A stretch of 64,000 nucleotides of DNA from an uncultured Actinomycetes bacterium (GTDB taxonomy: Bacteria > Actinomycetota > Thermoleophilia > Gaiellales > JAICJC01). The DNA is taken from the NCBI GenBank assembly GCA_963760755.1, contig CAVXEE010000003.1, positions 525,634-589,633 on the forward strand. The letters are read 5' to 3'. Below, in pieces: positions 5,005 through 53,690 of the stretch. Positions within the stretch are counted from its first letter, which is position 1; each line of letters starts with the position of its first letter. The notes beneath the pieces were generated by a model. The model saw only the letters and a list, made by a program, of their open reading frames with translations, had not been told where the DNA came from and did no database searches. Made by a program: the position numbers and the translations under genes.

Positions 5005-5943
5005 TCAGCCGCTCGTGAGCACGAAGTTCTTCACCTTCTTGCCGTTCAGCTCGATCAGCGCGCCCATGAGGTCGCCCTGCTCGTATGCGCTGCCCGGGTT
5101 GATGCACAGGGTGCTGCCGATGCGCGTGTGCCCGCGCGCCTCGTGGATGTGCCCGTGCAGCGAGAGCACGGGGTGCGTCTCCTCGATCGCAGTGCGCACG
5201 GCCGTGGAGCCGACGGGCTCGGGCGCGTGGCCGCCGTGCTTGGGCTTCAGGTTCTCGTCGAGGCCGGGGGCGTCGTCGAGGCCGGAGCCGTACGGCGGGC
5301 AGTGCAGGTTCAGGATGGTGCGCTCGGGCGGCGCGGTCAGCTGCGACGTGACCGCCCGGATGCGGGCGAGGAGCACGTCCTCGGGCTCCTCGCGGTAGGT
5401 GTGCCACGGGGTCGGGTTGGCCCAGCCGGTCGACGCCATCTGGAAGTCGCCGATGTCGACCACCCGCCCCTCGGCCAACTCGACGCGCGTCGCATCCGCG
5501 AGGATCTGGTCCACCTCGAACTGGTCGTCGTTGCCGGGGCAGACGAACATGCGCTGCGGCTGGCCGGCCAGCTTCTCGGCGGCCATCTGCATCCAGCGCT
5601 CGACCGTGCCCAGCATGTGGCTGTGGAACAGGTCGTCCAGCCGCTCCGAGTCGGCCTCGAGCTCGGCCAGCTCGTCGGGCGTCGTGCGGAACGGGTAGTA
5701 GCCGCGCCGGATCACGTCCTGCTCGAAGGCGACGACCTGATCGTCGCCCTGTAGGTCGCGGCGCTGCTCCTGCAGCGTGCCGTGCCAGCGCTCGCCGCCG
5801 TCATGGATGACCGGGACGAGCGCCTTCCCGGTCATGTCGCCGCCGAGGATCATCACGTCGGCCTTGTAGTGCGTGCCGGAGTTCAGGAACTTGCGCCAGC
5901 ACGTCTCCGACCCATGGATGTCCGTGGCAAAGAACACACGCAC
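5005..5943 (-). CDS. calcineurin-like metallophosphoesterase
   Basis: Motifs ATDIHG, ILGGDMTGK, CPGNDD, LHCPP and LHGHIHE. Start set at GTG 5943 (VRVFFATDIHG) because codons 5944-6000 have poor third-position GC. ATG 6000 is the alternative start. Confidence 0.8.
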   Translation of the reverse strand: MRVFFATDIHGSETCWRKFLNSGTHYKADVMILGGDMTGKALVPVIHDGGERWHGTLQEQRRDLQGDDQVVAFEQDVIRRGYYPFRTTPDELAELEADSERLDDLFHSHMLGTVERWMQMAAEKLAGQPQRMFVCPGNDDQFEVDQILADATRVELAEGRVVDIGDFQMASTGWANPTPWHTYREEPEDVLLARIRAVTSQLTAPPERTILNLHCPPYGSGLDDAPGLDENLKPKHGGHAPEPVGSTAVRTAIEETHPVLSLHGHIHEARGHTRIGSTLCINPGSAYEQGDLMGALIELNGKKVKNFVLTSG

Positions 5944-6015: not shown

Positions 6016-6049
6016 AGGTGCCTGGCACCGCATGCGGTGCCAGGCACCT
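6016..6049. promoter_or_regulatory. 34-bp perfect palindrome AGGTGCCTGGCACCGCA|TGCGGTGCCAGGCACCT between divergent genes
   Basis: Base-by-base check shows 17 + 17 nt with no mismatch and no spacer. It lies between the phosphoesterase start (5943/6000, minus) and the TMADH-like start (6086, plus). Confidence 0.6.
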
Positions 6050-6085: not shown

Positions 6086-8170
6086 ATGCCACCCGACGGT
6101 CGCTACGACATTCTGTTCGAGCCGGTCCAGATCGGCCCGAAGACGCTGCGCAACCGCTTCTACCAGGTGCCGCACTGCACGGGATTCGGCGTCGAGAAGC
6201 CGTGGTCGCAGGCGGCCCACCGCGCGGTCAAGGCCGAGGGCGGCTGGGCGGCCGTGTGCACCGAGTACTGCACCGTGTCGGCCGACGCCGACGAGACGCC
6301 CTACATCTCGGCGCGGATGTGGGACGACCACGACCTGCGCCACCTGGCGCTCACCTGCGAGGCGGCCCACGCCCACGGCGCGCTCGCCGGGATCGAGCTC
6401 TCGCACTCGGGCGCCCACGGCGAGAACGGCGAGACGCGCCTGCCGCCGCCGGCCCCCTCGCAGATCCCGAGCGACTTCTCCGGGATCACCCCGAAGGCGA
6501 TGGAGCAGGTCGACATCGACCGCATCATCTCGGACTGGGTCACCGCCGCCGTGCGCTCGCGCGACGCCGGCTTCGACATCGTCTACGTCTACGGCGGCCA
6601 CTCCTACCTGCTCGGGCAGATGCTCTCGCCCTTCTACAACCAGCGCACCGACGCCTACGGCGGCTCGCTCGCAAACCGCGCGCGGATGTGGATCGAGACG
6701 CTCGCGGCCGTGCGCGAGGCGGTCGGCTCGGACTGCGCGATCGCCTGCCGCATGGCCGTCTCGGACGGCGGCGGTGCGAGCGTGTCCGTCGAGGAGGGGC
6801 TCGAGTTCGTGCGCATGGCCGACGGCCTGGTCGACCTTTGGGACGTGCACCTGGGATCGATCCTGGAATGGTCGCTCGACTCCGGTGCGTCGCGCTTCTT
6901 CGCGGAGGGCTGGCAGCTCGAGTGGACCGGGCGCATGCGCGAGGCGACGCAGAAGCCGATCGTCGGCGTCGGCCGGCTGACGACGCCTGACCGGATGGTC
7001 GAGATCATCGAGTCGGGCGTGTGGGATCTGATCGGCGCCGCGCGCCCGAACATCGCCGACCCGTTCATCCCCGAGAAGATCCGCACCGGCCGCATCGACG
7101 ACATCCGCGCGTGCATCGGCTGCAACATGTGCATCTCCAAGGGCGACGTGCGCCGCCACATCGGCTGCACCCAGAACGCGACCGCAGGCGAGGAACACCG
7201 CCGCGGCTGGCATCCCGAGCGGTTCGACCGCGCCCGCAACGCCGACCGTGAGGTGCTGGTGGTGGGCGCAGGGCCCGCCGGGATGGAGTGCGCCCTCGTG
7301 CTCGGCCGCCGCGGCATGCGCCGCGTGCGCCTGGTCGACGCTGCCGCCGAGCCGGGCGGGATCACCCGCTGGGTGCCGCGCCTGCCCGGCCTTGCCGAGT
7401 GGGATCGGCTGCGCACGTGGCGGCTGAGCCAGCTCTCCCAGCTCCGAAACGTTGAGATCGAGACCGGCGTGCGCCTCGACGCGGCCGGTGTGCGGGCCGC
7501 CGGCGCCGACCTGGTCGTGGTCGCGACCGGCGCCGCCTGGGCGGGCGACGGCCGAAACGGCATCACCCGCGGGCCGATCCCCGGGGCCGACGCCTCGCTG
7601 GGCCACGTGCTCACCCCGGAGCAGATCATGCTCGCGGGCAAGCGGCCACCCGGCTCGCGGGTGGTCGTGCTCGACTGCGACGGCTACTTCATGGGCGCGG
7701 GCATGGCCGAGCTCCTGCGCGCCGACGGCCACGAGGTCGAGCTCGTGACGTCATGCGAGAAGGTCGCGCCGCGGTGCGACGAGACGCTCGAGGGCCCGCT
7801 CCTGCGCCGCCGCCTGCACGACCTCGGCATCGGCATGCGCGCCGAGACGTGGCTCACACGGATCGAGCCGGGCGGAGTGGCCTGCGAGACCGAGCTCGGC
7901 GACACGTTCGAGCTCGAGGCCGATGCCGTCGTGCTCGTCACCCAGCGCCTCTCGCAGGAGGCGCTCTACCTCGAGCTTGCGGCCGACCCGGGCGCGGCCG
8001 TGGAGCGCGTGCTGCGGATCGGCGACTGCGTCGCGCCGCGGCTGATCGCCGACGCGATCTTCGACGGCCACCGGCTGGGGCGCGAGATCGACTCGCCCGA
8101 CCCCGCGCTGCCGCTGCCGCACCTGCGCGAGCGTCCATCCTTGGAAGCCGACCCGCTCGCGGTGCGATAG
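6086..8170 (+). CDS. trimethylamine/dimethylamine/histamine dehydrogenase-family FMN + [4Fe-4S] + ADP-binding flavoprotein
   Basis: 694 aa. DILFEPVQIGPKTLRNRFYQVPHCTGFG, DAGFDIVYVYGGHSYL, NRARMWIETL, IGAARPNIADPF, CIGCNMCISKGDVRRHIGC (4Fe-4S) and VLVVGAGPAGME match the Methylophilus TMADH sequence as I recall it. This includes the Cys of VPHC that carries 6-S-cysteinyl FMN. Confidence 0.85.
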   Translation: MPPDGRYDILFEPVQIGPKTLRNRFYQVPHCTGFGVEKPWSQAAHRAVKAEGGWAAVCTEYCTVSADADETPYISARMWDDHDLRHLALTCEAAHAHGALAGIELSHSGAHGENGETRLPPPAPSQIPSDFSGITPKAMEQVDIDRIISDWVTAAVRSRDAGFDIVYVYGGHSYLLGQMLSPFYNQRTDAYGGSLANRARMWIETLAAVREAVGSDCAIACRMAVSDGGGASVSVEEGLEFVRMADGLVDLWDVHLGSILEWSLDSGASRFFAEGWQLEWTGRMREATQKPIVGVGRLTTPDRMVEIIESGVWDLIGAARPNIADPFIPEKIRTGRIDDIRACIGCNMCISKGDVRRHIGCTQNATAGEEHRRGWHPERFDRARNADREVLVVGAGPAGMECALVLGRRGMRRVRLVDAAAEPGGITRWVPRLPGLAEWDRLRTWRLSQLSQLRNVEIETGVRLDAAGVRAAGADLVVVATGAAWAGDGRNGITRGPIPGADASLGHVLTPEQIMLAGKRPPGSRVVVLDCDGYFMGAGMAELLRADGHEVELVTSCEKVAPRCDETLEGPLLRRRLHDLGIGMRAETWLTRIEPGGVACETELGDTFELEADAVVLVTQRLSQEALYLELAADPGAAVERVLRIGDCVAPRLIADAIFDGHRLGREIDSPDPALPLPHLRERPSLEADPLAVR

Positions 8171-13435: not shown

Positions 13436-13473
13436 GCCTCACCTGGGCGAACCTCGACCCGGGCGAGGCGGAG

Positions 13474-13508
13474 CGGGGACTGTCCCCGGTTGATGGGGAC
13501 AGTCCCCG
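13474..13508. repeat. paired-palindrome element A: cGGGGACTGTCCCC-ggttgat-GGGGACAGTCCCCg
   Basis: 14-bp inverted arms with a 7-nt loop, 10 nt downstream of the CDO stop codon (13518). Member of a 4-locus family. Confidence 0.8.
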
Positions 13509-13517
13509 TGTTGCCGG

Positions 13518-14075
13518 CTAGCAGAACTCCTCGCGGTAGTCACCCGTGCGGCGGCCGAGCAGGCCGTCGGACGCGACCTCGTAGAAGCCCATCTCGCCCA
13601 GGGGAGGCGAGTAGACGTGCAGCGAGGTGGCGAGGCCGGGGCCGGTCTGGGAGACATCGTGGATGTGGGTCGCCCCGAACGAGAAGCTCGCTCCCGTGGG
13701 GTGGATCGCGGTCGGCGGAGGCGGGCCGCCCACGGCCAGCCGCCGCTCCAGCAGCGCGCCGCCGACCACGGACACGGCCCCGCGGCTGCGGTCGTGATCG
13801 TGGAATCCGGTGTCCTGCCGCTGCGACCAGCAGATCAGCCACACCTCCAGGTGCTCGTCCAGGTGCAGCCGCACGTACAGACGCTCGACCGGTGAATGGC
13901 GGACGTGCTGCCGCCACAGATCCGGCCGCGCGGCGAGCTCGCGGACGAGCTGCTCCAGCTCCTCCCGGGTCGACTCGCGGCCGCGGTCGTGCGCGTCCAT
14001 CCACACGTCCAGCGCGGCGTCCGCCGCGAACATCTCGCTGGCCCCCTGGGCCTGGTCTCGGGCAAACGTCGCCAT
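13518..14075 (-). CDS. cysteine dioxygenase type I-like cupin
   Basis: The last 185 codons of track ORF 13518..14978 are coding and the rest is out-of-frame overlap. ATG 14075 opens MATFARD. Cupin metal motif GFHDHDRSRGAVSVVGG ... ATHIHDV. Confidence 0.75.
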   Translation of the reverse strand: MATFARDQAQGASEMFAADAALDVWMDAHDRGRESTREELEQLVRELAARPDLWRQHVRHSPVERLYVRLHLDEHLEVWLICWSQRQDTGFHDHDRSRGAVSVVGGALLERRLAVGGPPPPTAIHPTGASFSFGATHIHDVSQTGPGLATSLHVYSPPLGEMGFYEVASDGLLGRRTGDYREEFC

Positions 14076-15145
14076 CACGCCACCTCCTTCACGGTCACCG
14101 TCACGCGGTGGACGGCGCTGACCGCGTAGCCACGCCGGTTCCAGGTCGGCTGCTCGGGCTGCACGGCGCCGCTCGCGTCGCGGGCGCGCACGGCGATCGT
14201 GTGCGTGCCCGGGGTCGCCTCCCACTCGTGCTCCCAGAACGTGCGGCCGTGGCGGCCGGTGCGGGCGACGATCGCCGCGCTCGTCCAGGGCCCGCCGTCG
14301 ACGCGTACGTCGACGCGGGTGACGGCGCCCCCGCCGCTCCACGCGATCCCGCGGACGCGGGCCGCCCCGGGGAGCAGAGCGGCCGCGTCGGCGGGGTCGG
14401 TCACGAGCGAGTGCACCGGCATCCGCTCCATCCGCGATCCCGGCCCGGGGTCGTCGAGGGTTGCGAACCGGTAGTCGATCGCCTGGAACGGGCCGTCGAA
14501 CTCGCCGGCCGACACGTGGACACGCTCGAGCCACTTGACCGAGTCGGTGGCGTACCAGCCGGGCACGATCGCGCGCACCGGGCCGCCGTGCTCGGGCGGG
14601 ATCGGGCGGCCGTTCATCTCGAATGCGAGCAGCGTGTCGGGGTCGAGCGCCTTGCGCAGCGGGAGCGCACGGCCGTAGCGGTGCCTGGTCGCGCTGCCCT
14701 CGAACGGGCCCCGGTCGGCGCCGAGCAGGACGACCTCGGCGGCGCGCCCGTCGACGCCCGCGCGCTGCAGGAGATCGCGCAGCGGGACTCCCGTCCAGGT
14801 GGCCTCGGACACGGCGCCCGGCCCCCACTGCAGTCCGGGCGTGGCGGGTACGAGCTCGGCGCGGCGATGGCCGGCGCACTCGAGCACGACGGCGGCCGTC
14901 CGCTGGGGCATGGTCACGAGCTCGGCCAGCGTGATGATCGCCGGAGTGCGCACGGCGCCGGCCAGGCGCAGGCGCCACTCGGCCGGATCGAGATCCGGGA
15001 CGGGGAAGTGCTCGCGGCGGAAGTGGGCCTGCGTGGGCATGTGCCGCTCGCCGAGCGCCGTGAGCGTCGCGGGGAGGTTGTGGACGCCGGGCGCGGGCGA
15101 TTGCCGAAGCGGCGCGGTGGCCGTAGGCTCGAGGTGGGGTTCCAC
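14075..15145 (-). CDS. sulfite oxidase-like molybdopterin oxidoreductase (catalytic + dimerisation domains)
   Basis: 356 aa. FRREHFPVP, VLECAGHRR (Mo-ligand Cys region), LAFEMNGRPIPPEHGGPVRAIVPGWY and SVKWL. The stop overlaps the CDO start by 1 nt (TGATG). GTG start at 15145; ATG 15040 is the alternative. Confidence 0.8.
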   Translation of the reverse strand: MEPHLEPTATAPLRQSPAPGVHNLPATLTALGERHMPTQAHFRREHFPVPDLDPAEWRLRLAGAVRTPAIITLAELVTMPQRTAAVVLECAGHRRAELVPATPGLQWGPGAVSEATWTGVPLRDLLQRAGVDGRAAEVVLLGADRGPFEGSATRHRYGRALPLRKALDPDTLLAFEMNGRPIPPEHGGPVRAIVPGWYATDSVKWLERVHVSAGEFDGPFQAIDYRFATLDDPGPGSRMERMPVHSLVTDPADAAALLPGAARVRGIAWSGGGAVTRVDVRVDGGPWTSAAIVARTGRHGRTFWEHEWEATPGTHTIAVRARDASGAVQPEQPTWNRRGYAVSAVHRVTVTVKEVA

Positions 15146-25582: not shown

Positions 25583-25746
25583 AAGCGCTCCCGGGTTGTC
25601 AAGCCGCCAACCGCAACGCGACTCCGGTTGCGGCCGGCGCGAGCACCGCGAAAGCGCGTGCGTGTGCGATCAAGAACTAGATTGCGGCCATCGCCGCGCC
25701 GCCGAACACGCTGCTCGTCTCCGGGCACACGCTGACACCGGCCGAC

Positions 25747-33508: not shown

Positions 33509-34363
33509 GTGCTCGTCGTCACCGGATCGACCGGTCACGTCGGCCGCCTCGTGGCCGAGGAGGTGGCCGTGCGCGGCCATCCCCAGCGGCTGCTGGTGCG
33601 CGACCCCGGCCGGGCGCCGCAGCTGCCCGGAGCCGAAGTCGTCGCCGCCGACTACGCCGACCCGGCGTCGCTGCGGGCCGCGCTCGGCGAGGGCGATCGC
33701 GTCTTCATGGTCTCGCTGCACGAGGGCCCGGCAGACCGCGTGCCCCAGCACCGCAACTTCGTCGAGGCGGCCGCCGCCGCCGGGGTGGCCCAGGTCGTCT
33801 ACCTGTCGTTCGTCGCCGCCGGCCCTGACGCGATCTTCCTGCACGCGCGCTCGCACGGCGAGACCGAGCGCATGCTGGCCGACGCGGGCCTGCAGTTCAC
33901 CGCGATCCGAAACTCGATGTACGCAGACGACATCCCCGGCTGGTTCGACACCGAGGGCACAAACACGGTCCCGGGCGGGGACGGCCGCATGAGCTTCTCC
34001 TACCGGCCCGAGCTCGCCCGCGCGATCGCGGTCACCCTCACCGAGCCCGGCCACGGCGGGAAGGTCTACAACATCGTCACGCCGCAGTCGGTGAGCATGA
34101 CCGAGCTGGCCGAGATCGCCTGGGCCGTGAGCGGCGCCAACTACCGCTACGCGCCGACCAGCGACGCGGCGTGGGAGGTGCGCTGGCGGGCGCGCGGCAA
34201 GGAGGAGTGGGCGATCGAGGCCGGGCTGTCCTCGTATGCCGCCCTGCGCGCCGGCGAGTTCGACGTGACGAGCGACGACTACCGCACCCTGACGGGCGAG
34301 GATCCGCTGTCGGTCTCGGACATCGCCGCCCTCCTGGCCGACCGCCTGCCGCTGCACGCATGA
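33509..34363 (+). CDS. NmrA-like / atypical SDR NAD(P)-binding protein
   Basis: 284 aa with a GTG start. VVTGSTGHVGRLVAEEV is the Rossmann motif. Confidence 0.8.
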   Translation: MLVVTGSTGHVGRLVAEEVAVRGHPQRLLVRDPGRAPQLPGAEVVAADYADPASLRAALGEGDRVFMVSLHEGPADRVPQHRNFVEAAAAAGVAQVVYLSFVAAGPDAIFLHARSHGETERMLADAGLQFTAIRNSMYADDIPGWFDTEGTNTVPGGDGRMSFSYRPELARAIAVTLTEPGHGGKVYNIVTPQSVSMTELAEIAWAVSGANYRYAPTSDAAWEVRWRARGKEEWAIEAGLSSYAALRAGEFDVTSDDYRTLTGEDPLSVSDIAALLADRLPLHA

Positions 34364-35604
34364 GCCTCGCCGAGGCGCTCGGCGTGCGCAGCTACCGCGA
34401 CCTGTTCGCCGGCGGCGAGGCCCGGCGGGTGGTGTCGTGGGGGCTCCTGGCGCGGATGCCGATGGGCATGAGCTCGCTCGCGTTCGTGCTGCTCGTGCGC
34501 AGCGAGGGCGGCTCCTACACCGCCGCCGGCATCGTGACCGGCGCGTACACCGTGGCGGCAGGCGCAGGCGCGGTGGTCGGCGGGCGCCTGGTCGACCGCC
34601 GCCGGCCCGCGCCCGTGCTGATGGTCTACGGCATCGCCTACGCGGTCGCGCTGGCCGGCCTGCTCGCGCTCGCCCACGCGCGCGTGCCCGAGGCGGCGCT
34701 CGTCGGCGCGGCGCTCGTGGCGGGCGTGCTCGCGCCGCCGATCGGGCCGACGATCCGGATGATGTGGCCGGCGATGCTGCCGCGGCCCGACCTGCGCACG
34801 ACGGCGTTCGCGCTCGAGGCGACGATCCAGGAGGTGATCTTCGTGGTCGGGCCGTTGCTCGTGGCGGTGCTGGCGGCGACAGTCTCGGCGAGCGCGGGCG
34901 TCATCGCCGCGGCGCTCGCCTGCCTGGTCGGCACGCTCGGATTCATCGCCACGCCGGCCGTGCGGGCGCGACGGCCCGACCCGGGCCACGACCGCTCCGG
35001 CCACCACGTGTTCGAGGCGCTCATCCCCTGGGGCGTGCGCCGCATCCTCCTGCTCGGCGGCGCGTACGGGATCGCGTTCGGCGCCGCCGAGGTGTCGATG
35101 CCGGCGTTCGCCGAGGGCCACGGCGGCCGCTCGCTGGGCGGGATCGCCCTGGCGGCGTTCTCGGGCGGCAGCCTGACCGGCGGCATCCTGGCCGGGGCGG
35201 CGTCGTCGCAGGAGGGCGGCCTCAACCGCCGCCTGCAGCTCGTGAGCGCGGCGTTCGCGGTCGTGCTCGTGCCCCCGCTCCTGGCCGGGTCGATGGCGCA
35301 GATGGCGGTGGTCATGTTCGTCGCCGGCCTGCCGATCGCGCCCAGCGTCGCCATCGCCTACAACCTGATCGAACGGGCCGCGGTGGCAGGCACGCAGGCC
35401 GAGGTGTTCGGGTGGCTCTCGACGGCCGTGACGGCCGGCATCGCGGTCGGCACGGCCGGCGGCGGCAGCCTGATCGCGCACGGGAGCGTGCACCGCGCGC
35501 TCGCGCTTGCGATCGTCGGTGCGACGCTCGGCTGGGCGATCTCGCTCACCCGCGAGAGCGGGGACAGTCCCCGCCGTAGCGGGGACTGTCCCCGGGTCGC
35601 CTAG
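34360..35604 (+). CDS. MFS transporter
   Basis: ATG 34360 (ATGA overlap with the previous stop) lies within track ORF 34171..35604, with about 12 TM segments. The last 15 codons (ESGDSPRRSGDCPRVA) are supplied by repeat element B. Confidence 0.8.
   Translation: MSLAEALGVRSYRDLFAGGEARRVVSWGLLARMPMGMSSLAFVLLVRSEGGSYTAAGIVTGAYTVAAGAGAVVGGRLVDRRRPAPVLMVYGIAYAVALAGLLALAHARVPEAALVGAALVAGVLAPPIGPTIRMMWPAMLPRPDLRTTAFALEATIQEVIFVVGPLLVAVLAATVSASAGVIAAALACLVGTLGFIATPAVRARRPDPGHDRSGHHVFEALIPWGVRRILLLGGAYGIAFGAAEVSMPAFAEGHGGRSLGGIALAAFSGGSLTGGILAGAASSQEGGLNRRLQLVSAAFAVVLVPPLLAGSMAQMAVVMFVAGLPIAPSVAIAYNLIERAAVAGTQAEVFGWLSTAVTAGIAVGTAGGGSLIAHGSVHRALALAIVGATLGWAISLTRESGDSPRRSGDCPRVA
35559..35594. repeat. 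paired-palindrome element B: cGGGGACAGTCCCCgc-cgta-gcGGGGACTGTCCCCg
   Basis: 16-bp inverted arms with a 4-nt loop. It lies inside the last codons of the MFS gene and 7 nt from the stop of the convergent phosphoesterase gene. Confidence 0.8.
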
Positions 35605-36431
35605 TTGATCGGGAGCGGCGTCGCCGTCTGGGCGGCGTTTACGAGCGGGAGCCCGAAGTCGTCCTCGAGCCCGGCCAGAAGGCCGAAGTGCGTGTAGGCG
35701 GTGCCGTCCTTCACGCCCGCCTTGGCGCTGCCGCCGATCGCGATCGTCGCGATGTGCTCGTTGCTCCGCGTGCCCTCGTCCCAGGTCACGATCACCTCGG
35801 CCCCACCCGCCAGCATGGCGGGGACGTTGCCCTTGAGCCAGGCGTCGCCGGCCTTGATCTGCGCCGTCTTGCTCGACCCGTCGTGCATGTCGTCCGCGTC
35901 GTTCGGGACGACGTAGGAGAAGGCGCGCAGGTGCGCCGGATCGAACGCCGCGTAGGGCAGCATGTTGGCGCAGGCGGCCTTGTTCGAGGTGATGTCCTGG
36001 TACCAGACAGCCGCGTTGTGGTTCTTGTCGTAGGGCGCCGGCCCGGACTTCGAGTAGCAGGCGCTCGGCATCGCCTCGTTGTACTGCCCCCAGCTGATGT
36101 CGGCCTTCTGGAGCTGGTCGAAGATATTCTCGGAGTTCTTCGCCTGCGAGGTCGTTGCGATCCCGCCGGTCATGCGCAGGTAGTCGGGCAGGCTGCCAGG
36201 CGCGGCCTGGTAGTTCGTGTAGAGCGTGCCGGCCGCGATCAGCGACTGGATGTAGGGCGCGTTCGCGTTGCCGACGATCGTGTCGTACGTCTTGTTCTCG
36301 AGCACGATCACCACGATCGGATGCGACGGCGCCGCCTGGGCGACCGCCGTCCCGATGCCCGCCGGAGCCGCCACCACGCACATGAGCCCCGCGGCGGCCG
36401 CCGCCGCCCGTCTCCGCATGCCACCACTCAT
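35601..36431 (-). CDS. secreted phosphoesterase-family protein (AcpA / phospholipase C-like)
   Basis: 276 aa. Signal MRRRAAAAAAGLMCVVAAPAGIGTAVAQA, then HPIVVIVLENKTYD, PNDADDMHDG and VTWDEG. Confidence 0.75.
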   Translation of the reverse strand: MSGGMRRRAAAAAAGLMCVVAAPAGIGTAVAQAAPSHPIVVIVLENKTYDTIVGNANAPYIQSLIAAGTLYTNYQAAPGSLPDYLRMTGGIATTSQAKNSENIFDQLQKADISWGQYNEAMPSACYSKSGPAPYDKNHNAAVWYQDITSNKAACANMLPYAAFDPAHLRAFSYVVPNDADDMHDGSSKTAQIKAGDAWLKGNVPAMLAGGAEVIVTWDEGTRSNEHIATIAIGGSAKAGVKDGTAYTHFGLLAGLEDDFGLPLVNAAQTATPLPIN

Positions 36432-36525
36432 CGCACGACCTCCCCGGTCACCCGCCGAATGTCCCCCCGGTCCACGGTACTCGCTGCAAGCGAAGTTGCA
36501 ACCACACCACCCCGGCTGGGTGGGG

Positions 36526-37476
36526 TCACTCCCGGCCCAGGTCGGCCCCGATCCGCTCCATCACCGCGGCGGCCGGCTCGATCGACGTGATCGCCCCCGC
36601 GCCCGTGCCGGCGTAGAGGCACATCGCCTCGATGTCGCCGGTCGTCTCGCGCCTGGGGTCGTCGGCCGAGTAGCGCGGGATCGGGACGCCCGCGTGCTCG
36701 CCGAGGATCTCGCCCTCTCCCGGGCGCTCGCCCGGCGGTTTGCGGCCGAGCCGCGCCCAGCGCTCGTAGGTGCTGTTCACGAGCACCCGGTGCGGCGCGT
36801 CCGGCCAGCCTCCGTCGAAGAGGAGCGTATGCACGGTGTCGGAGCCGGCCACGACCCGCGCGGCGTACTGCGGATGCACGTCCGCCTCGTCGGTGGCGAC
36901 GAACCGCGTGCCCATCATCGCCCCGGCCGCGCCGGCCGCGATGGCCGTCTGGACGCCGGCGGCGTCGACCAGCCCGCCGGCGGCGATCACGGGGAAGCCG
37001 ACGGCCGCGGTCACCTGGCCGATCAGCGCCGCGCGCGCGGTCGTGCCCTGCACGTGCCCGCCCGCCTCGACGCCCTGGGCGATGACGACGTCGCATCCGG
37101 CCTGTGCACCCGCCACCGCCTCGGCGACCGAGCCGGCCTGGACGAGCACGCGGCAGCCCGCAGCATGCGCGCGCGCCACGAGCTCCGGCGCGACGCCCCA
37201 CGAGAACGACACGAGCGCGACGCGCTCCTGGGCGCACACCTCGAGCCGCTCCGCCTGCTCGAACGCGAGCACGAGGTTGACGGCGAACGGCCGGTCGGTC
37301 AGCCGCCGCACCGCGCCGATCTGCTCACGCAGCCCGGCGGGATCCGTCCACGACGCGCCTAGGCAGCCGATGCCGCCCGCGCCGCTGACGGCGGCCACGA
37401 GCTCCGGGGTCGCGGCGGGTCCGATCGGTGCCTGCATGACCGGCACCGTCCAGGGGAGCTGCGCGGCGGTCGGCAT
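36526..37476 (-). CDS. nitronate monooxygenase (NMO / 2-nitropropane dioxygenase family, FMN)
   Basis: The last 316 codons of track ORF 36526..39111 are coding. ATG 37476 opens MPTAAQLPWTVPVMQAPIG. Also VIAQGVEAGGH and GTRF. Confidence 0.8.
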   Translation of the reverse strand: MPTAAQLPWTVPVMQAPIGPAATPELVAAVSGAGGIGCLGASWTDPAGLREQIGAVRRLTDRPFAVNLVLAFEQAERLEVCAQERVALVSFSWGVAPELVARAHAAGCRVLVQAGSVAEAVAGAQAGCDVVIAQGVEAGGHVQGTTARAALIGQVTAAVGFPVIAAGGLVDAAGVQTAIAAGAAGAMMGTRFVATDEADVHPQYAARVVAGSDTVHTLLFDGGWPDAPHRVLVNSTYERWARLGRKPPGERPGEGEILGEHAGVPIPRYSADDPRRETTGDIEAMCLYAGTGAGAITSIEPAAAVMERIGADLGRE

Positions 37477-37515
37477 CGCTGCGATCGTAGCGGCGCCCAC
37501 CCGGCCTGGCAGGAT

Positions 37516-39024
37516 GTGCGCGTGAACCGGCGTGAGCTCCTCCTGCGCGCGGCCGCCGTGCCGATGGCGGGCGGCCTCGCCGCGTGCTCCTCGGGCGGGT
37601 CGTCGTCGAGCCCCGCGAAGGTCGCGCCGCCCACCACGGGGCAGATGACGCTCGCCGATCTCGCGGCGCGGCTGCAGGGCCCGCTGCTGCGGCCGGGGAC
37701 GTCGCACTACGACACGGCGCGCGTGATCTCGAACGAGCGCTACACGGCCCGGCCGCAGGCGATCGCGCGCGTCGTCTCCGAGGCGGACGTCGTCCAGTGT
37801 GTGCGCTTCGCGGCCGGCGGGACGCTGCCCTTTGCGGCCCGCTGCGGCGGGCACAGCTACGCGGGCTACTCCACGAACCGGGGCCTCGTGTGCGACGTGC
37901 GCCGGCTGAACGCGATCGCCGTCGCCGCCGACGGGCGGTCGGTCACGGTGGGCGCGGGCGTGCTCGCGATCGATCTCGTCACCGCCCTCGCGGCCAGGGG
38001 CCTGGCGGTGCCGACCGGGTCGTGCCCAACGGTCGGCATCTCGGGCCTCGCCCTCGGCGGCGGCGTCGGGTTCGCCGCCCGCGTCCTCGGGGCGACGTGC
38101 GACAACATCCTCGCCGTGCGGATCGTCACGGCCGCCGGCCGCGTCGTCACCGCCGATCCGGCGACGAACTCCGACCTCTACTGGGCCTGCCGCGGGGGCG
38201 GCGGCGGCAACTTCGGCGTCGTCACCGCGCTCACGCTCGCCACCCACCCCGTCAGCACGGCCGCCTACGGCTTCTGCGACTTCCCCTGGTCGCAGGCCGG
38301 CGCCGCGCTGGCCGCGTGGCAGGCGCTCGCCCCGCACGGGCCTGACGACCTGTACCTGATCTGCGCCCTCGAGACGGGGACGAGCGCGCCGGTCGTGCGC
38401 GTCTTCGGGCAGCTGCTCGGAGGCAGCGAGGCGGCGCTGCGCACGGCGATGGCGCCCATCACCGCGGTCGCGGGCGCGTCGCTTCGGACCGGCCACGGCG
38501 GCTACCTCGACGTGCAGCGGATCTGGGCCGGATGCGCGACCGAGACCGCCGCCCAGTGCCGCACGATCCAGCCGGCCAGCTTCGCCGCCCGGTCGGCCTA
38601 CGTCGCCGACCCGCTGCCGGCGCGGGCCGCACAGGCGATCGTGACAGCGGTCGAGGCCCGCCAGGCGCAGGGCGCAGGATCGGGCGCCGTGCTGCTCGAC
38701 CCCTACGGCGGCGCGCTCAACCGCGTCGCCCCCGACGCGACCGCGTTCGTCCACCGCGACCAGCTCTTCTCTGCGCAGATGCTCGCCTACTGGGGCTCGG
38801 CCGGCGGCGGCTCGCCGGCCGGCGCGTGGCTCAACTCGCTGCACGCGTCGCTCGCGCCGTTCACCTCGGGCCAGGCCTACCAGAACTACATCGACCCCGG
38901 CCTGGCCGGCTGGCAGGAGGCCTACTACGCAACCAACCTGGCGCGGCTGCGCGCGGTCAAGCGCACGTGGGATCCCGACCAGGTGTTCCGGTTCCGCCAG
39001 GGCATCCGCCCCGCCGCCGCCTGA
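37516..39024 (+). CDS. Tat-exported FAD-binding oxidase, berberine-bridge-enzyme-like
   Basis: 502 aa. Tat signal VNRRELLLRAAAVPMAGGLAAC, ARCGGHSYAGYS (covalent FAD His) and C-terminal BBE motif YQNYID ... VFRFRQGI. Confidence 0.8.
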   Translation: MRVNRRELLLRAAAVPMAGGLAACSSGGSSSSPAKVAPPTTGQMTLADLAARLQGPLLRPGTSHYDTARVISNERYTARPQAIARVVSEADVVQCVRFAAGGTLPFAARCGGHSYAGYSTNRGLVCDVRRLNAIAVAADGRSVTVGAGVLAIDLVTALAARGLAVPTGSCPTVGISGLALGGGVGFAARVLGATCDNILAVRIVTAAGRVVTADPATNSDLYWACRGGGGGNFGVVTALTLATHPVSTAAYGFCDFPWSQAGAALAAWQALAPHGPDDLYLICALETGTSAPVVRVFGQLLGGSEAALRTAMAPITAVAGASLRTGHGGYLDVQRIWAGCATETAAQCRTIQPASFAARSAYVADPLPARAAQAIVTAVEARQAQGAGSGAVLLDPYGGALNRVAPDATAFVHRDQLFSAQMLAYWGSAGGGSPAGAWLNSLHASLAPFTSGQAYQNYIDPGLAGWQEAYYATNLARLRAVKRTWDPDQVFRFRQGIRPAAA

Positions 39025-39050
39025 GCCCGGGGCGGCGATACCCTGGCGGC

Positions 39051-39557
39051 ATGCACGAGACCGCCGCCGACCTGGCCGCGCTGCAGCGCCTGCTCGACCA
39101 GAGCTATGCACACGCCGGCCGCCACCTGCGCGACGTCATCTCGCCCGAGCGGCGGGTCACCGCGGCGCAGCTGGCCGCCCGGCTGACCGGGATGCGGCTG
39201 CTGGTGCTCGCGACCGTGACGGCGGACGGGCGGCCGATCGCCGGGCCGGTCGACGGCATCTTCTACCGCGGCGCGTTCTGGTTCGGGTCGGCGCCCGACT
39301 CGCTGCGCTTCCGCCATATCCGCGCCCGCCCCGACGTGAGCGCGACGCACCTCGAGGGCGAGCCGTTCGCCGTCACCGTCCACGGCCGCGCGCACGAGGT
39401 CGACCTGCGCGACCCGGACGTCGCCGCGTTCCGCGCGACGCTCGCGGAGGTGTACGCGCCGCGGTACGGCGCCGCCTGGATCGAGTGGGCCGAGCGCAAC
39501 CCCTACGCCCGCATCGACGCGCGGCGGATGTTCACGTTCAGCTTCGACGAGCCCTGA
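39051..39557 (+). CDS. pyridoxamine 5'-phosphate oxidase-like split-barrel flavin/deazaflavin-binding protein
   Basis: ATG 39051 lies within track ORF 38532..39557. 168 aa, [19 protein letters not shown]. Confidence 0.6.
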
Positions 39558-39576
39558 GCACCTATCCTCCCGGTCG

Positions 39577-40608
39577 ATGCGCGCGCTGCGTAAGAGCCGG
39601 GCCGAGCCGGGTCTCTGGCTGGAGGACGTCCCCGAGCCCGAGCACGGCATCAACGACGTCCTGATCCGGGTGCGCCGCACCGGCATCTGCGGCACCGACG
39701 TGCACATCGAGCGGTGGGATCCGTGGGCGCAGCGGACGATCCCGGTGCCGCTGGTGATCGGCCACGAGTTCGTCGGCGAGGTGGTCGCCGTCGGCTCGAA
39801 CGTGAGCGACTTCCACCCCGGCGACCTCGTCAGCGGCGAGGGCCATGTCGTCTGCGGCCGCTGCCGCAACTGCATGGCCGGCCGCCGGCACCTGTGCGCG
39901 CACTCCCAGGGCGTCGGCGTGAGCCGCCCGGGGGCGTTCGCCGAGCTGATCGCCCTGCCGATGACGAACATCTGGCACCACTGGCCGGGCGTCGACGAGG
40001 ACGTCGCCGCGATCTTCGACCCGTTCGGAAACGCGGTGCACACCGCGCTCGCATTCCCGGTGCTGGGCGAGGACGTGCTCATCACCGGCGCCGGCCCGAT
40101 CGGCTGCATGGCGGCGGCGGTCGTGCGCCACGCCGGCGCGCGCCACGTCGTCGTCAGCGACCCCAACGCCTACCGGCGCGACCTGGCCGAGCGCATGGGC
40201 GCGAGCCTGACGGTCGACCCGGCCGCGCGCGGCCTCGATGACGTGCAGCGCGAGCTCGGCATGACCGAGGGCTTCGACGTCGGCCTCGAGATGTCGGGCA
40301 GCTCCGCGGCCCTGCACCAGCTGCTCGCGAACATGTCCCACGGCGGCCGCATCGCCCTGCTCGGGATCCCCACCGAGGAGATCGCGATCGACTGGACGCA
40401 GGTCGTCTTCAACATGCTCACGCTGCGCGGGATCTACGGGCGCGAGATGTACGAGACGTGGTACCAGATGACCGTGATGCTGCAGTCGGGCCTCGACATC
40501 ACGCCGGTCATCACCCACCGCATGCCCTATACCGACTTCGCCGAGGGGTTCGCGATCGCGGGCTCCGGCCAGTCCGGCAAGGTCGTCCTCGACTGGACAG
40601 GAGCCTGA
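39577..40608 (+). CDS. tdh: L-threonine 3-dehydrogenase
   Basis: 343 aa. [18 protein letters not shown], the structural zinc motif [15 protein letters not shown] and [12 protein letters not shown]. It is followed directly by kbl. Confidence 0.9.
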
Positions 40609-40610
40609 CG

Positions 40611-41792
40611 ATGGATGGAGCGCTTCGCGACGACCTGCGCAGCCGCCTGGAGGAGCTGCGCACGGCCGGCCTGTACAAGGGCGAGCACCTGATCCAGACG
40701 CCCCAGTCGGCCCACGTCCGGGTGGCCGACCAGGGCGAGGTGCTGAACCTCTGCGCGAACAACTACCTCGGACTGGCCGACCACCCCGAGATCGTGGCGG
40801 CCGCGCGCGAGGCGCTCGAGCGGTGGGGCTACGGCATGGCGTCGGTGCGCTTCATCTGCGGCACCCAGCAGGTGCACCGCGAGCTCGAGGAGCGGCTCGC
40901 GACGTTCCTGGGCAGCGAGAGCGCGATCCTGTACGGATCGTGCTTCGACGCCAACGGCGGCCTCTTCGAGGCGCTGCTCGGGCCCGAGGACGCCGTCATC
41001 TCCGACGCGCTCAACCACGCCTCGATCATCGACGGCATCCGCCTGTGCAAGGCCCGCCGCCTGCGCTTCGCAAACGGCGACATGGACGAGCTCGAGGCGC
41101 GCCTGCGCGAGGCGGCGGACGCCCGCCACCGGCTGATCGCGACCGACGGCGTTTTCTCGATGGACGGCTACCTGGCGAAGCTGCCCGAGATCTGCGACCT
41201 GGCCGAGCGCCACGACGCGATCGTGATGGTCGACGACTCGCACGCGGTCGGCTTCATGGGCGCGGGCGGCCGCGGCACGCACGAGCTGCACGACGTGATC
41301 GGCCGCGTGGACATCCTCACCGGCACGCTCGGAAAGGCGATGGGCGGGGCCAGCGGCGGCTACGTGGCGGCGCGCTCCGAGGTCGTCGAGCTGCTGCGCC
41401 AGCGCTCGCGGCCGTACCTCTTCTCGAACAGCCTGGCGCCGCCGATCGCGGCCGCGAGCCTGCGCGCGCTCGACCTGATCGAGCGCTCGAGCGAGCTGCG
41501 CGAGCAGCTGTCTGCGAACACCGCCCGCTTCCGCGCCCGCATGGCCGACCTGCGGTTCGACATCCTGCCGGGCTCGCACCCGATCGTGCCGGTGATGGTC
41601 GGCGACGCCGTCCGCGCCGCGAGCCTCGCCGACGGCCTGATCCGCCGCGGCGTCTACGCCGTCAGCTTCTCCTATCCCGTGGTGCCGCAGGGCACCGCCC
41701 GGATCCGCACGCAGATGTCGGCGGCGCACACGGCGGCCGACATCGACTTCGCGGCCGACCAGTTCGCGGCCGCGCGCGCCGAGCTCGCCTAG
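40611..41792 (+). CDS. kbl: glycine C-acetyltransferase (2-amino-3-ketobutyrate CoA ligase)
   Basis: ATG 40611 lies within track ORF 40458..41792. [27 protein letters not shown] and [14 protein letters not shown] (PLP lysine). Confidence 0.9.
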
Positions 41793-41801
41793 AGACGACG
41801 C

Positions 41802-41842
41802 GGGGCCTGGCCCCGGTTCGCGAGGAACCGGGGCCAGGCCCC
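41802..41842. terminator. bidirectional hairpin (17-bp perfect stem, 7-nt loop) after kbl
   Basis: GGGGCCTGGCCCCGGTT-cgcgagg-AACCGGGGCCAGGCCCC, between the kbl stop (41792) and the convergent beta-propeller remnant (41864). Confidence 0.75.
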
Positions 41843-41863
41843 AGTGCTACCTATGCCGAGCAG

Positions 41864-43130
41864 CTACTCGTGGAAGAGCGTGAAGTGCTGCTGGGTGACA
41901 CCGCCGGCCTTCGTGAGCTCGCCGCCGATGGCAACCACGCCCGTGCCGGCCGAGCCGCCCGTCGCGACGGCCTCGATGCCGAGCGTCGTGTTCACGGCCG
42001 GATTCCACGTGGAGAGCGTGGTGCCGAAGGTCTCGTCGACGGCCGTCAGCTTGTCGCGGGTTGCGACCGGGGTGAGGAAGTTGCTCCCCGGGATCGGCCC
42101 GTCATAGCCGGTGAAGTGGCCGCCCATGTAGAGGATGCCGTCCGCCACGCCAACGCCGACGACGTTGCCGTTGAAGCCCTCGATGTAGTTGAGCTGGCCC
42201 GTCTCGATGTTCCAGGACATGGCCGAACCGCCGTTGCCGGTGCCGGCGCCGAACAGGTTCTCGCCGTCCTGCGAGAAGGCGAGCAGCTGGAACGGCCGGA
42301 ACGTCTGCAGGTCACTGGTGTGCCAGGCCAAATGGGAGCGATGCTCCGGTGTTGGCATCGACCGCGCCGACGCCGAGGTTCGTCGTGTTCGGATCGCCGG
42401 GCGCGCCGCTGTTCAGCTGGTTGAAGAATCCGCCCAGGATCACCCGGGTGCTGGTCGGGTTGACGGCGATCGCGCGCACCTCGGGGCTCGTGCCCAGCGA
42501 GTTCGAGATCACGGGCGCGAACGCCGGGATCAGCGTGCCGGAGGTCGCATTGGCCTCGAGCGCGTAGTGCCGCGGGGTGGTGAACGCGCCGCCGACGTAC
42601 AGGTTGCCCGCCGACGAGACGGTCAGACCGCGCACCGCCTTGTTCGGCTTGAGCGAGTTGCCGAACGCTGCGACCGGCGCACCGCTCGTCCCGTCGACCT
42701 CGACCAGGTTCTTGTGAGCCGCGTTCGTGGCGCCCGCGGTGGTGAACGTGCCGCCGATGTAGATGTCCCCGTTGGGGTTCGCGGCCAGCGCGTACACGTT
42801 GCCGTTCACGTTCGGATCCCACGAGAGCAGCGCGCCGGTGGCGGTGTTCACCGCGGCGACGTGGTTGCGCGTGACGGCCGTGCCGCCGGCGTTCGGCACC
42901 ATCGCCGTGAACTGTCCGCCCAGGTACGTCACGTTGCCGACGATCAGGATCGTCCGCACCGTTCCGTTCGCCCCGTAGAGCGAGGAAGGCTTCTTCTGGA
43001 CGACGGCCGCGGATGCCGCAGACGCGAGCACACCCATCGTCACCAGCACAGCCACCGCCGTGCCACACCAGCCAAAGATCCTGCGCCTGCCTGCGAGCAG
43101 GGTCTCTGCTCCGCTACCCATCTGCCTCAT
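41864..43130 (-). pseudogene. secreted beta-propeller (delta-60/PQQ-like repeat) protein interrupted by a single frameshift at 42330-42332
   Basis: Track ORFs 42312..43130 and 41864..42358 are two halves of one repeat protein. Deleting one base of the run ccAAAtgg joins ...VDANTGASLP to LAWHTSDLQTF. Confidence 0.7.
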
Positions 43131-43293
43131 GTCCAGCCTCTCGTCGAAGGAACGCGCCGCTTACACATTATCGAATGTACCGCCTGCAACACGGCTGTCA
43201 ATCTCACCCAGCCCGCGGTCGCGCCAAAATGCGGACTCAACCGCCGCCCGGGAAGGCCGATGACCCTCCAATGCCCTCTCCCGCTCGTGCCGC

Positions 43294-44382
43294 GTGATCA
43301 ACCTGCGCGCCTTCGCCGCCGCCCTCGACTGGAGCGACCCCGCCGCGCCGGCGTTGCTGACCGGCTTCGCGGCCCGGTTCGGGCCGGCCGACGACGCCAC
43401 GCTCGTCATCCACGGCGGCGCGGAGGCCGAGGTTGTCGCGGCCGCCGACGCGCTCGGCGAGGACAGTCCCGACATGGTGCTCGTGGCCGCCGAGGGCCTG
43501 ACCGCAACGGCGCCCCACCTGGCGGCCGTGCTCGGCAGCGGGCGGCCGCAGGGCGACCTGGCCGACCTGCCGTGGGTGGCGCCGGCCGAGCTGCGCAGCC
43601 TCTACGACCTGCGCATGACCGGCCCGTACCCGCGCCTGCACCGGTTCACGTGCAACCTGTGCGGCTCGGAGGGGGTCGCCGAGAATCGCGGCTGGCCGCG
43701 CGACACGGCCACCTGCACGGTGTGCGGATCGGCGGCCCGGTTCCGCTGCCTGGCGGACATCATCGCCCGCGAGCTGTTCGGAGCCGATGTCCCGATCTCA
43801 GCGCTCCCGCACCGGCCCGACCTGGTCGGCGCCGGGATGAGCGACCACCACGCGCTCGCCGCCGCGCTCGGCCGCCGGATGACCTACACGAACACCTTCT
43901 ACCACTGCGAGCCGCGCCTCGACGTGTCGGCCCCCGGCGAGCACGCCGGCCGCTACGACCTGGTCGTCTGCAGCGAGGTGCTCGAGCACGTGCCGCCGCC
44001 GGTCGATCCGGCGTTCACGGGCCTCTTCGAGCTCCTGCGCCCCGGCGGCCTGCTCGTGTTCAGCGTCCCCTACGCCGCCGACGGCGAGACGCGCGAGTTC
44101 TTCCCCGACCTGCACCGGTACGAGGTCGTCGCCGTCGACGGCGGTCACGTGCTGCGCAACACCACGAGCGACGGGCGGGTGCAGGAGTTCTCCGACCTGG
44201 TGTTCCACGGCGGCCCGGGCGAGACGCTCGAGCTGCGCGCGTTCGCCCTCCCCGACCTGCTCGCGCGGTTCGCCGCCGCGGGCTTCACCGACGTCCAGGT
44301 GCGGCGCGAACCGAACTTCGCGCACGGCGTGTGGTGGCCGGGGTGGGACGGCTGGCCGATCACGGCCCGCCGTCCCGCCTGA
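43294..44382 (+). CDS. class I SAM-dependent methyltransferase with an N-terminal extension and a zinc ribbon
   Basis: 362 aa with a GTG start. CNLCG-x17-CTVCG, then DLVVCSEVLEHV and GGLLVFSVP (Methyltransf_23-like). Confidence 0.65.
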   Translation: MINLRAFAAALDWSDPAAPALLTGFAARFGPADDATLVIHGGAEAEVVAAADALGEDSPDMVLVAAEGLTATAPHLAAVLGSGRPQGDLADLPWVAPAELRSLYDLRMTGPYPRLHRFTCNLCGSEGVAENRGWPRDTATCTVCGSAARFRCLADIIARELFGADVPISALPHRPDLVGAGMSDHHALAAALGRRMTYTNTFYHCEPRLDVSAPGEHAGRYDLVVCSEVLEHVPPPVDPAFTGLFELLRPGGLLVFSVPYAADGETREFFPDLHRYEVVAVDGGHVLRNTTSDGRVQEFSDLVFHGGPGETLELRAFALPDLLARFAAAGFTDVQVRREPNFAHGVWWPGWDGWPITARRPA

Positions 44383-44389
44383 CCTCTCG

Positions 44390-44902
44390 CTAGCTCGTGG
44401 TCGCCGCCGAGGCGATCTCGGTCTCGGGCGCAGGAGCGGTGTCGCCGGCGAACAGGTCGTCGACGTTCGAGTCGAGGTCCTCGACCACGATCTGCTTCGC
44501 CCCGAGCACGGTGAGCAGCTGCTTGGCGGTGTCGACGGCGTCGGCCGAGATCTCGAGCACGGTGGCCGAGCTGCCCGGCGTCATCGACTTGCCGAGCGCC
44601 TCGAGCTGGTCGTTCTTGAACCCGGAGTCGCGCAGCTTCGACGCGAGCGCCCCGATGCTGCCGCCGGCGAGGATGCCGATCGGGCCGCCGAGGATGCCGA
44701 TCACGCCGCCGACGAGCGCGCCGCGGCCGGCGCCCCAGTCCTTCGACTCGACGAACTTGACGTGGCCGTCCTCGCGGACGACCAGGACGGCGGTGTTTCC
44801 GACCCGGTCGGGGAAGGCGCCGCCGACGGAGCCGGCGCCCCGTGAGCCCGCCTCGACGGTCGAGAAGCTTGCGGCCAGGATCTTGCGGTTGGAGTCAGCC
44901 AT
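44390..44902 (-). CDS. DUF1269-like membrane protein
   Basis: ATG 44902 is preceded by GGAGG. Glycine-zipper segment GALVGGVIGILGGPIGILAGGSIGALAS. Confidence 0.6.
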   Translation of the reverse strand: MADSNRKILAASFSTVEAGSRGAGSVGGAFPDRVGNTAVLVVREDGHVKFVESKDWGAGRGALVGGVIGILGGPIGILAGGSIGALASKLRDSGFKNDQLEALGKSMTPGSSATVLEISADAVDTAKQLLTVLGAKQIVVEDLDSNVDDLFAGDTAPAPETEIASAATTS

Positions 44903-44984
44903 GGTCGGCCTCCGGTTTCGATTGGGAAGCCACACCTTAGCCCCCGCTCGTTGAATCCGGCATTAGGATCGGGACCGTCCGCGC

Positions 44985-45974: not shown

Positions 45975-45994
45975 GGCGTGGCAGCGCAGCCGCT

Positions 45995-46028
45995 GGGGAC
46001 AGTCCCCGCCGAAGCGGGGACTGTCCCC
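45995..46028. repeat. paired-palindrome element C: GGGGACAGTCCCCgc-cgaa-gcGGGGACTGTCCCC
   Basis: 15-bp inverted arms with a 4-nt loop, between the convergent amidohydrolase (stop 45974) and VOC gene (stop 46037). Differs from element B at one loop position. Confidence 0.8.
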
Positions 46029-46036
46029 GGTTGTCG

Positions 46037-46453: not shown

Positions 46454-46491
46454 GTGTCCCTCCTCGGGGTCGGTCCGTTTCGAGAGGGACG

Positions 46492-47516: not shown

Positions 47517-47614
47517 GAGCCCTCCTCGAAATTGTCTGCGTGCCGGGAAGAGACTCACTCACCCGGGGGAACTCATCGTCGCCGATCTCGCGCGATGCCG
47601 TAGGCTTCACCGTT

Positions 47615-47631
47615 GATGAATTTGCGATGAA
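47615..47631 (+). promoter_or_regulatory. direct repeat GATGAA-tttgc-GATGAA (11-bp period), candidate response-regulator box
   Basis: Lies 25-40 nt upstream of the RR GTG (47656). OmpR-family regulators typically bind direct repeats at 10-11 bp spacing. Confidence 0.35.
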
Positions 47632-47655
47632 CGCCGACGGAGAGGAGGGAGGGCC

Positions 47656-49718: not shown

Positions 49719-49766
49719 CGCGCAGGCGCCGGCCGAATATCGTTCGGCCAAGGAAGATGAAGATTC

Positions 49767-50495: not shown

Positions 50496-50510
50496 TCAGC
50501 GTCGTGGTAT

Positions 50511-53679: not shown

Positions 53680-53690
53680 CGGAGGCAGCC

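Follow-up and report, generated by a model that had tools for sequence, protein, structure and literature searches.

Paired 13-nt palindromes after genes of an uncultured Gaiellales-like actinobacterium: a probable REP-type hairpin family with candidate Y1 transposases

Four sites in a 64-kb stretch of genomic DNA from an uncultured actinobacterium carry two copies each of a GC-rich, 13-nt palindrome, mostly behind genes. What are these pairs: intrinsic terminators that happen to look alike, binding sites for a protein, or members of a dispersed, REP-type repeat family? The stretch (hereafter the window; G000:C3:525634-589633, where G000 is this genome) belongs to an assembly of 3.71 Mb in 12 contigs with 72% GC, rated 79% complete. 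The evidence makes it highly probable that the palindrome, F1, is a REP-type (REPIN-like) hairpin family, one of four in the genome, which has been spread and reshuffled by Y1 transposases of the TIRYT/RAYT kind and whose doublets are likely terminators or 3' stabilisers.

The palindrome families in the window and across the genome

The window contains seven exact matches to the F1 13-mer GGGGACWGTCCCC, at 13475, 13495, 35560, 35581, 45995, 46016 and 50525, and an eighth copy with one mismatch, the left partner at locus D (50510-50522, TGGGACTGTCCCC). In all 100 of 100 dinucleotide-preserving shuffles of the window sequence, GGGGACWGTCCCC was absent. These eight copies bear out the paired palindromes at four loci of a preliminary description of the window, but the F3 and F4 doublets that also lie there had been missed (Table 1). 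Its centre-to-centre spacings of 20, 21, 21 and 15 at loci A to D were reproduced, and its two arrangements, which differ in whether the T-centred or the A-centred copy comes first, were recovered at the same loci; they are truly distinct because each is its own reverse complement. The flank CCCCGGTT follows a copy at loci A, C and D and is not found at B, and there is no unpaired F1 copy within the window, again as described.

Table 1. Palindrome doublets in the window, with positions counted from its first nucleotide
Feature	Coordinates	Composition	Arrangement	Gene context
Locus A (F1)	13475-13507	GGGGACTGTCCCC-GGTTGAT-GGGGACAGTCCCC	T-centred copy first	Minus-strand CDO_I gene (13518-14078), with the doublet 10 nt past its stop
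Locus B (F1)	35560-35593	GGGGACAGTCCCC-GCCGTAGC-GGGGACTGTCCCC	A-centred copy first	Between MFS (34360-35604, +) and phosphoesterase (35601-36419, -) genes, which converge
Locus C (F1)	45995-46028	GGGGACAGTCCCC-GCCGAAGC-GGGGACTGTCCCC	A-centred copy first	20 nt past the stop of an amidohydrolase gene (44985-45974, +) and 8 nt past the stop of a convergent glyoxalase-family gene (46037-46549, -)
Locus D (F1, compressed)	50510-50537	TGGGACTGTCCCC-TG-GGGGACAGTCCCC	T-centred copy first	BTAD/SARP-type regulator gene (49767-50495, +), with the doublet 14 nt past its stop; 46 nt further on, the start of an RND transporter gene (50584, +)
F3 doublet	41802-41842	GGGGCCTGGCCCC-15 nt-GGGGCCAGGCCCC		Convergent genes 40611-41792 (+) and 41864-42331 (-)
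F4 doublet	6017-6048	GGTGCCTGGCACC-GCATGC-GGTGCCAGGCACC		Divergent genes 5005-5943 (-) and 6086-8170 (+)

The motif is not confined to these four places. Counted genome-wide, GGGGACWGTCCCC is the top 13-mer of the genome, with 120 exact copies at 71 loci positioned after gene ends, and its central base is nearly always A or T. The loci comprise 37 exact pairs, five larger clusters and 29 apparent singles, 17 of which have a degenerate partner no more than 35 nt away; with degenerate partners included, 59 of the 71 loci are doublets or larger. Inverted doublets, a REPIN-type feature, are thus the common form of F1. The central bases of the paired copies are complementary in most cases (TA in 26 pairs and AT in eight, vs TT in four and AA in four), and the spacing has modes at 17 and 20-21, with loops of ~4 and ~7-8 nt when the flanking G...C pairs are counted as part of the stem. 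Spacers within doublets differ from locus to locus. The outer flank G[CG]TTCTC recurs at F1 copies, and neither the flank consensus nor the flank k-mer counts contained GTAG or GTGG, the 5' GT[AG]G foot of classical REPs. We also sought a unit orientation in the association of the central base (A/T) with a GGTT or GCTT outer flank and found no link (15 vs 14).

Three further families share the genome with F1: F2 (GGGGTCWGACCCC, 67 copies), F3 (GGGGCCWGGCCCC, 25 copies) and F4 (GGTGCCWGGCACC, 58 copies). F1, F3 and F4 occur mainly as doublets, and F2 takes the form of single 31-nt palindromes (TGAATAaACGGGGTCWGACCCCGTtTATTCA). The four families differ by compensatory base-pair changes only, at stem positions 5/9 and 3/11.

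Two side observations concern the way in which copies are arranged. Doublets with the T-centred copy first are preferred in F1 (26:8), F3 (5:0) and F4 (16:0); the stem is equally perfect in either order, and transposase genes are bracketed in the opposite order (A...T). Outside the window there is also a composite element of ~250 nt (G000:C3:259971-260211, C7:561793-562047 and C9:140765-141016), in which three hairpin modules are bracketed by a total of four F1 13-mers; the stems of the modules (TTCACAAA.../...TTTGTGA, TGCTCCATCT.../...AGATGGAGCA and GAACAACCC.../...GGGTTGTTC) are conserved, and their loops vary. Partial copies lie at C4:465441-465541, C3:463386, C3:495779 and C5:8691, and the first module has the TTMAC flank also present at the 182-aa transposase gene described below. 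Scanned against Rfam, the composite elements matched nothing but microRNA models, by chance and below threshold.

Placement after genes and hairpin folding

Genes were called with a simple third-position-GC caller of our own, which is crude (3737 genes, 89% coding). By these calls, 59 of the 71 F1 loci are intergenic and 10 lie inside a gene, of which seven are caller artefacts. About three copies are apparently in frame within genes (G000:C4:209359, C4:771700 and C11:25053), where third-position GC is high in one and the same frame before and after the copy. F1 loci were found 26, 32 and 1 times in convergent, tandem and divergent spacers, vs 8.6, 33 and 17.5 expected from the number of intergenic bases (p = 9e-12), and in tandem spacers they lie a median of 17.5 nt past the preceding stop and 47.5 nt ahead of the following start. 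F2, F3 and F4 are placed in the same way, just 3' of stops and rarely between divergent genes. A reading of the sites as operators of a regulon was rejected, as they lie after genes, not before them, and are far too numerous.

Within the window, the gene context was as the preliminary description had given it, including the sulfite oxidase-CDO operon ahead of locus A, where the CDO_I gene, of cysteine-dioxygenase type, is preceded by a molybdopterin oxidoreductase gene (Oxidored_molyb/Mo-co_dimer). The exception is locus B, which does not strictly follow a stop codon because the MFS reading frame crosses the doublet; the last ~15 codons of this gene are the translated doublet itself. In the related genome G041 the locus B doublet is present at the orthologous site with a TGA stop just 5' of it, a stop that has been lost in this genome, and the C-terminal tail of the MFS protein is therefore best seen as a recent, secondary read-through.

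On either strand, doublets form perfect stems of 14-16 bp, with energies of -30 to -53 kcal/mol for segments of 57-66 nt. At locus A the hairpin has 16 bp and energies of -46.5 (+ strand) and -37.6 (- strand) kcal/mol (z of -7.2 and -6.3, respectively), the compressed doublet at locus D is weaker (-30.2 kcal/mol, z of -2.6), and the F3 doublet of the window folds at -49 kcal/mol. A single copy, folded as single-stranded DNA, forms a stem of 6 bp, one of them the flanking C-G pair, and a loop of 3 nt. The doublets thus have the GC-rich hairpin and the position after a gene of an intrinsic terminator, but no T-run that would encode a U-tract follows them, and a scan of positions 35000-52000 for consensus terminators returned 0 terminator-like sites vs 3.2 in shuffled sequence. 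U-less terminators are common in high-GC actinobacteria, so the missing U-tract is compatible with terminator function, and a terminator role for the doublets is plausible. Their persistence nearly only past stop codons would fit either tolerance of the hairpin at such places or its use as a bidirectional, U-less terminator or 3' stabiliser.

Could the loci be ordinary intrinsic terminators whose GC-rich stems have converged, with no mobile origin at all? Strong hairpins directly past stop codons are what such an origin would produce. It would not produce 120 copies of an identical 13-mer where none is expected, Y1 transposase genes flanked by the same palindromes, or a range of 0 to 238 copies between species of one genus (both below), and the absence of a U-tract and the presence of a few copies between divergent genes or in frame within genes also speak against it. 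We consider convergence of this kind extremely unlikely. Mere chance similarity of GC-rich terminators is excluded by the 120 copies, the transposase flanks and the copy-number range.

Y1 transposase genes and variation among relatives

The preliminary description had raised the possibility of a REP element or a RAYT-type target and had suggested a search for a REP-associated tyrosine transposase. Such a search found two Y1 HUH genes, palindrome-flanked here and in relatives, and together with the genome-wide count it supports that reading. The two are PF01797 (Y1_Tnp) genes and are 44% identical to each other. Against the NCBIfam model REP_Tyr_transpos (NF047646, cut-off 80) they score 87.6 and 65.9 bits, and the IS200 model gives 16.6. 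Relatives of these proteins carry the automatic annotation "REP element-mobilizing transposase RayT", and profile matches to them occur in 60 of 301 sampled Actinomycetota genomes. The HUH and Y...NP motifs (H60, H62, Y119, N123 and P124) are invariant in the genus alignment. Searched against the PDB as a single sequence, the 182-aa protein gave no match; a profile search with the genus proteins had as its sole match 4ER8, the E. coli TnpA_REP, with the HUH and Y...NP motifs aligned. An AlphaFold model of the Y1 enzyme (pLDDT 94.7) also found its best fold match in 4ER8 (TM 0.68/0.74), followed at ranks 2-30 by the ISDra2 and IS608 transposases of IS200/IS605 type.

The 238-aa gene (C7:196301-197017) encodes a C-terminal helix-turn-helix, with HTH_23 and Sigma70_r4 matches at residues 201-237, and is flanked on both sides by TGAATAAACGGGGTC[A/T]GACCCCG..TATTCA, which is exactly the 31-nt consensus of the F2 family with its 67 dispersed copies. 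The 182-aa protein has no helix-turn-helix match. Its gene (C7:217579-218127) has GGGGACAGGCCCC-TTAAC, one base from F1, on either side; the T-to-G change introduces a stem mismatch, and the flanks are in direct, not inverted, orientation. The same GGGGACAGGCCCC-TTAAC stands at the head of a dispersed hairpin module (C4:465445). No transposase gene in this genome was found to have exact F1 flanks, and the cognate gene may simply be missing because the assembly is only 79% complete. The enzyme serving F1 here is probably the product of the 182-aa gene, to judge by flanks that are a single base off. Alternatively, the F1 gene has been lost or was not assembled, and F1 may be an orphan family in this genome.

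Homologues of the Y1 proteins were found in 28 of 31 genomes of the genus, with one to six in each, and one of them occupies a conserved slot next to upp, the uracil phosphoribosyltransferase gene. In nine genomes the Y1 gene lies between F1 copies in the form AACC-GGGGACAGTCCCC-GAACG ... CGTTC-GGGGACTGTCCCC-GGTT, most of them in the upp slot; the flanks are F2 in six genomes, F3 in two and other palindromes elsewhere, and the hybrid flank occurs in this genome and G041. In a maximum-likelihood tree of 21 Y1 proteins, flank type is monophyletic within well-supported subclades. Since the compensatory pairs at positions 5/9 and 3/11 are tracked by transposase subclades, the data fit a model in which the identity of the stem sets hairpin specificity.

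These stem changes also bear on the possibility that a dimeric protein (a nucleoid-associated protein, gyrase or a global regulator, for example) binds the 13-mer as double-stranded DNA, with the pairs serving as tandem sites and the hairpin being incidental. Each 13-mer is two-fold symmetric, which a hairpin between two copies would not need, and the 13-mers are conserved while their spacers vary. E. coli BIMEs are bound by IHF and gyrase. Compensatory changes between families, however, are expected of a hairpin as well, the sites lie after genes and not before them, and their direct link is to Y1 enzymes, which act on single-stranded hairpins. Protein binding might be an added role, but it would leave the spread of the copies unexplained, and we regard a dimer site as the primary nature of F1 as improbable.

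The number of F1 copies varies from 0 to 238 among the 31 genomes of the genus. Outside the family, 11 of 12 genomes from other families of the order have none, and G024 has three. High counts mostly, but not always, coincide with an F1-flanked transposase gene: G009 and G018 have such a gene and only 8 and 4 copies, respectively, and G036 has 194 copies with no F1-flanked gene in its upp slot. This mismatch between copy number and gene in G009, G018 and G036 counts against the main reading, as do the lack of a gene with exact F1 flanks, the mismatched, direct flanks of the 182-aa gene and the broken state of its G041 orthologue, in a genome that nonetheless has 110 F1 copies. The missing GT[AG]G foot and the unconserved spacers count against it as well, unlike Pseudomonas REPINs, which copy as whole units.

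Comparison with G041, which is collinear with the window at 90-95% identity, shows how the loci have changed. In place of locus A, G041 has ~870 nt of other sequence and no element; locus C is common to both genomes, though decayed in G041; and locus D belongs to a 10-kb segment (47578-57519) that G041 lacks at this place. F1 doublets in G041 occupy the exact sites of the F3 and F4 doublets of the window, with the same outer flanks at the F3 site, and another G041 F1 doublet corresponds to an empty site at window position ~10265. Over 34 G000 loci with alignable flanks (~0.6 Mb), ~19 hold the same family in G041, 10 are empty there and five hold another family. Insertion boundaries and target sites could not be read from filled and empty sites of this pair of genomes, whose flanks are too diverged.

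Collinearity between the window and G041 breaks at 13436-13520, 25632-25666, 39010-39029, 44384-44403, 45975-45995 and 47578-57519. These breaks are indels of 0.5-10 kb, and two of them fall at repeat loci (A and C). In most other genomes of the genus, 7-15 kb separate the two genes that flank locus C.

It is possible, if rather doubtful, that F1 is a fossil family, in which the transposase that spread it has been lost or has changed its specificity by drift and the copies are immobile, kept as useful or harmless hairpins at gene ends. The lack of a gene with exact F1 flanks, the nearest candidate flank being mismatched, would follow from such a loss. The G041 orthologue of the 182-aa gene (C6:533050-533568) has a TGA stop, looks frameshifted and appears to be a pseudogene, and its genome retains its F1 copies; more than half of the compared loci are common to the two genomes; and orphan REP families are documented (PMC3686654). 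On the other side, perfect copies outnumber one-mismatch copies by 120 to 29, a ratio that points to recent copying or strong maintenance, several F1 loci occur in just one of the two genomes, and the cognate gene may be among the part of the genome that the 79%-complete assembly lacks.

The main reading, a REP-type family spread by Y1 enzymes, suggests the following mechanism, modelled on E. coli TnpA_REP and the IS200/IS605 enzymes, to which the catalytic steps are assigned by homology. A REP-associated HUH/Tyr (Y1) enzyme would recognise the small hairpin of each palindrome on single-stranded DNA and would cut and rejoin beside it through the catalytic tyrosine, so that copies could be mobilised in trans. 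Two inverted copies would then make a doublet, which can form a 14-16-bp GC-rich hairpin on either strand. Copies would persist almost solely past stop codons, where the hairpin is tolerated, and there a doublet would most likely act as a bidirectional terminator without a U-tract or as a stabiliser of mRNA 3' ends.

Some loci differ in content but not in position. In 12 genomes of the genus, the locus C slot variously holds F1 (in one arrangement or the other), F3, F4, F2 and F3 as a spaced pair, a lone copy or a private hairpin. At G000:C3:325860 and its G041 counterpart (C4:990705-990746), an F2-type long palindrome with TGAATAAAC...TATGCA flanks has the core GGGGTCTGACCCC in this genome and CGGGCCTGGCCCG, which is F3-like, in G041; the flanks are otherwise conserved, and the specificity base pair is altered on both sides of the palindrome.

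One speculative account, which we think unlikely, is that slots after genes persist while their content is exchanged, with Y1 enzymes acting as site-specific cassette exchangers that replace a resident doublet in place or convert its specificity base pair. A family swap was seen at five of 15 non-shared G000/G041 sites, vs ~6% expected from occupancy, which favours such exchange, as do the presence of at least four families at one locus across 12 genomes of the genus and the change of core within the same flanks at C3:325860. If exchange does take place, terminator hairpins would be rewritten to match the current transposase specificity.

Significance and relation to known systems

REP-type repeats with dedicated Y1 transposases would be active shapers of intergenic DNA in this uncultured genus of high-GC soil actinobacteria. 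The genus amounts to a compact natural experiment, with four families separated by single compensatory pairs and tracked by transposase subclades, with 0 to 238 copies and with turnover between close relatives, and it should be useful for working out how Y1 enzymes read hairpins. For annotation, the families would explain many "terminator-like" palindromes, some spurious C-terminal extensions such as that at locus B, and several synteny breakpoints.

The closest known type is the TIRtron, or TIRYT. Di Nocera et al. (2013; PMC3733652) described RAYT-like genes with GGGGWSAS terminal repeats under these names and reported that some of the repeats flanking TIRYT genes belong to dispersed, self-complementary families that form dimers. 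The likeness is close: the starts of F1 (GGGGACAG) and F2 (GGGGTCAG) fit GGGGWSAS exactly, flanks of this type lie at Y1 genes here and in relatives, and the repeats are self-complementary, dispersed and arranged as dimers. Quentin et al. (2018; PMC6006769) classed TIRYT as subclass 2.1 of TnpAY1, with a C-terminal helix-turn-helix, a feature of the 238-aa protein and not of the 182-aa protein. They found no REP-like sequences beside subclass 2.1 genes, and the Actinobacteridae in their sample of complete genomes, the subclass with the best sampling in this phylum, had only IS200-type (subclass 1.1) enzymes. The present system differs in that four related families coexist at high copy number in 3.7 Mb, in that the starts of F3 (GGGGCCAG) and F4 (GGTGCCAG) depart from GGGGWSAS, with the F3-flanked genes of G004 and G014 (GGGGCCAG) off at the W position, and in its host, an uncultured Gaiellales-like actinobacterium.

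With the REP/REPIN-RAYT systems of Escherichia, Pseudomonas and Stenotrophomonas, the families share short extragenic palindromes that are mostly inverted doublets after genes, and low-copy HUH/Tyr genes with repeat flanks, which here match the dispersed family exactly for F2 and the 238-aa gene and differ by one base from F1 at the 182-aa gene. In Pseudomonas and Stenotrophomonas, Nunvar et al. (2013; PMC3686654) found syntenic RAYT genes associated with different REP classes (orthogroups), switches of the flanking class (orthoswitch), orphan REPs and very uneven copy numbers. Here, too, orthologous transposase genes of related strains carry different repeat classes, copy numbers are uneven and F1 may be an orphan family. 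In contrast to these systems, the unit is a perfect 13-nt palindrome and not an imperfect one of ~25-35 nt, there is no 5' GT[AG]G foot, and the doublet spacers of 4-8 nt are not conserved between copies. E. coli TnpA_REP, the best structural match of the Y1 model, has only ~13% sequence identity to it.

The IS200/IS605 elements resemble the system in their Y1 HUH fold and in subterminal hairpins that are recognised on single-stranded DNA. Here, however, the two genes are not multi-copy identical elements, at least the 182-aa gene occupies a syntenic slot by upp, and it is the hairpin alone that is dispersed, not the gene. A REP/TIRYT-type system as such is already known, and the one in this genus is one more member of it, with an unusually clean family structure.
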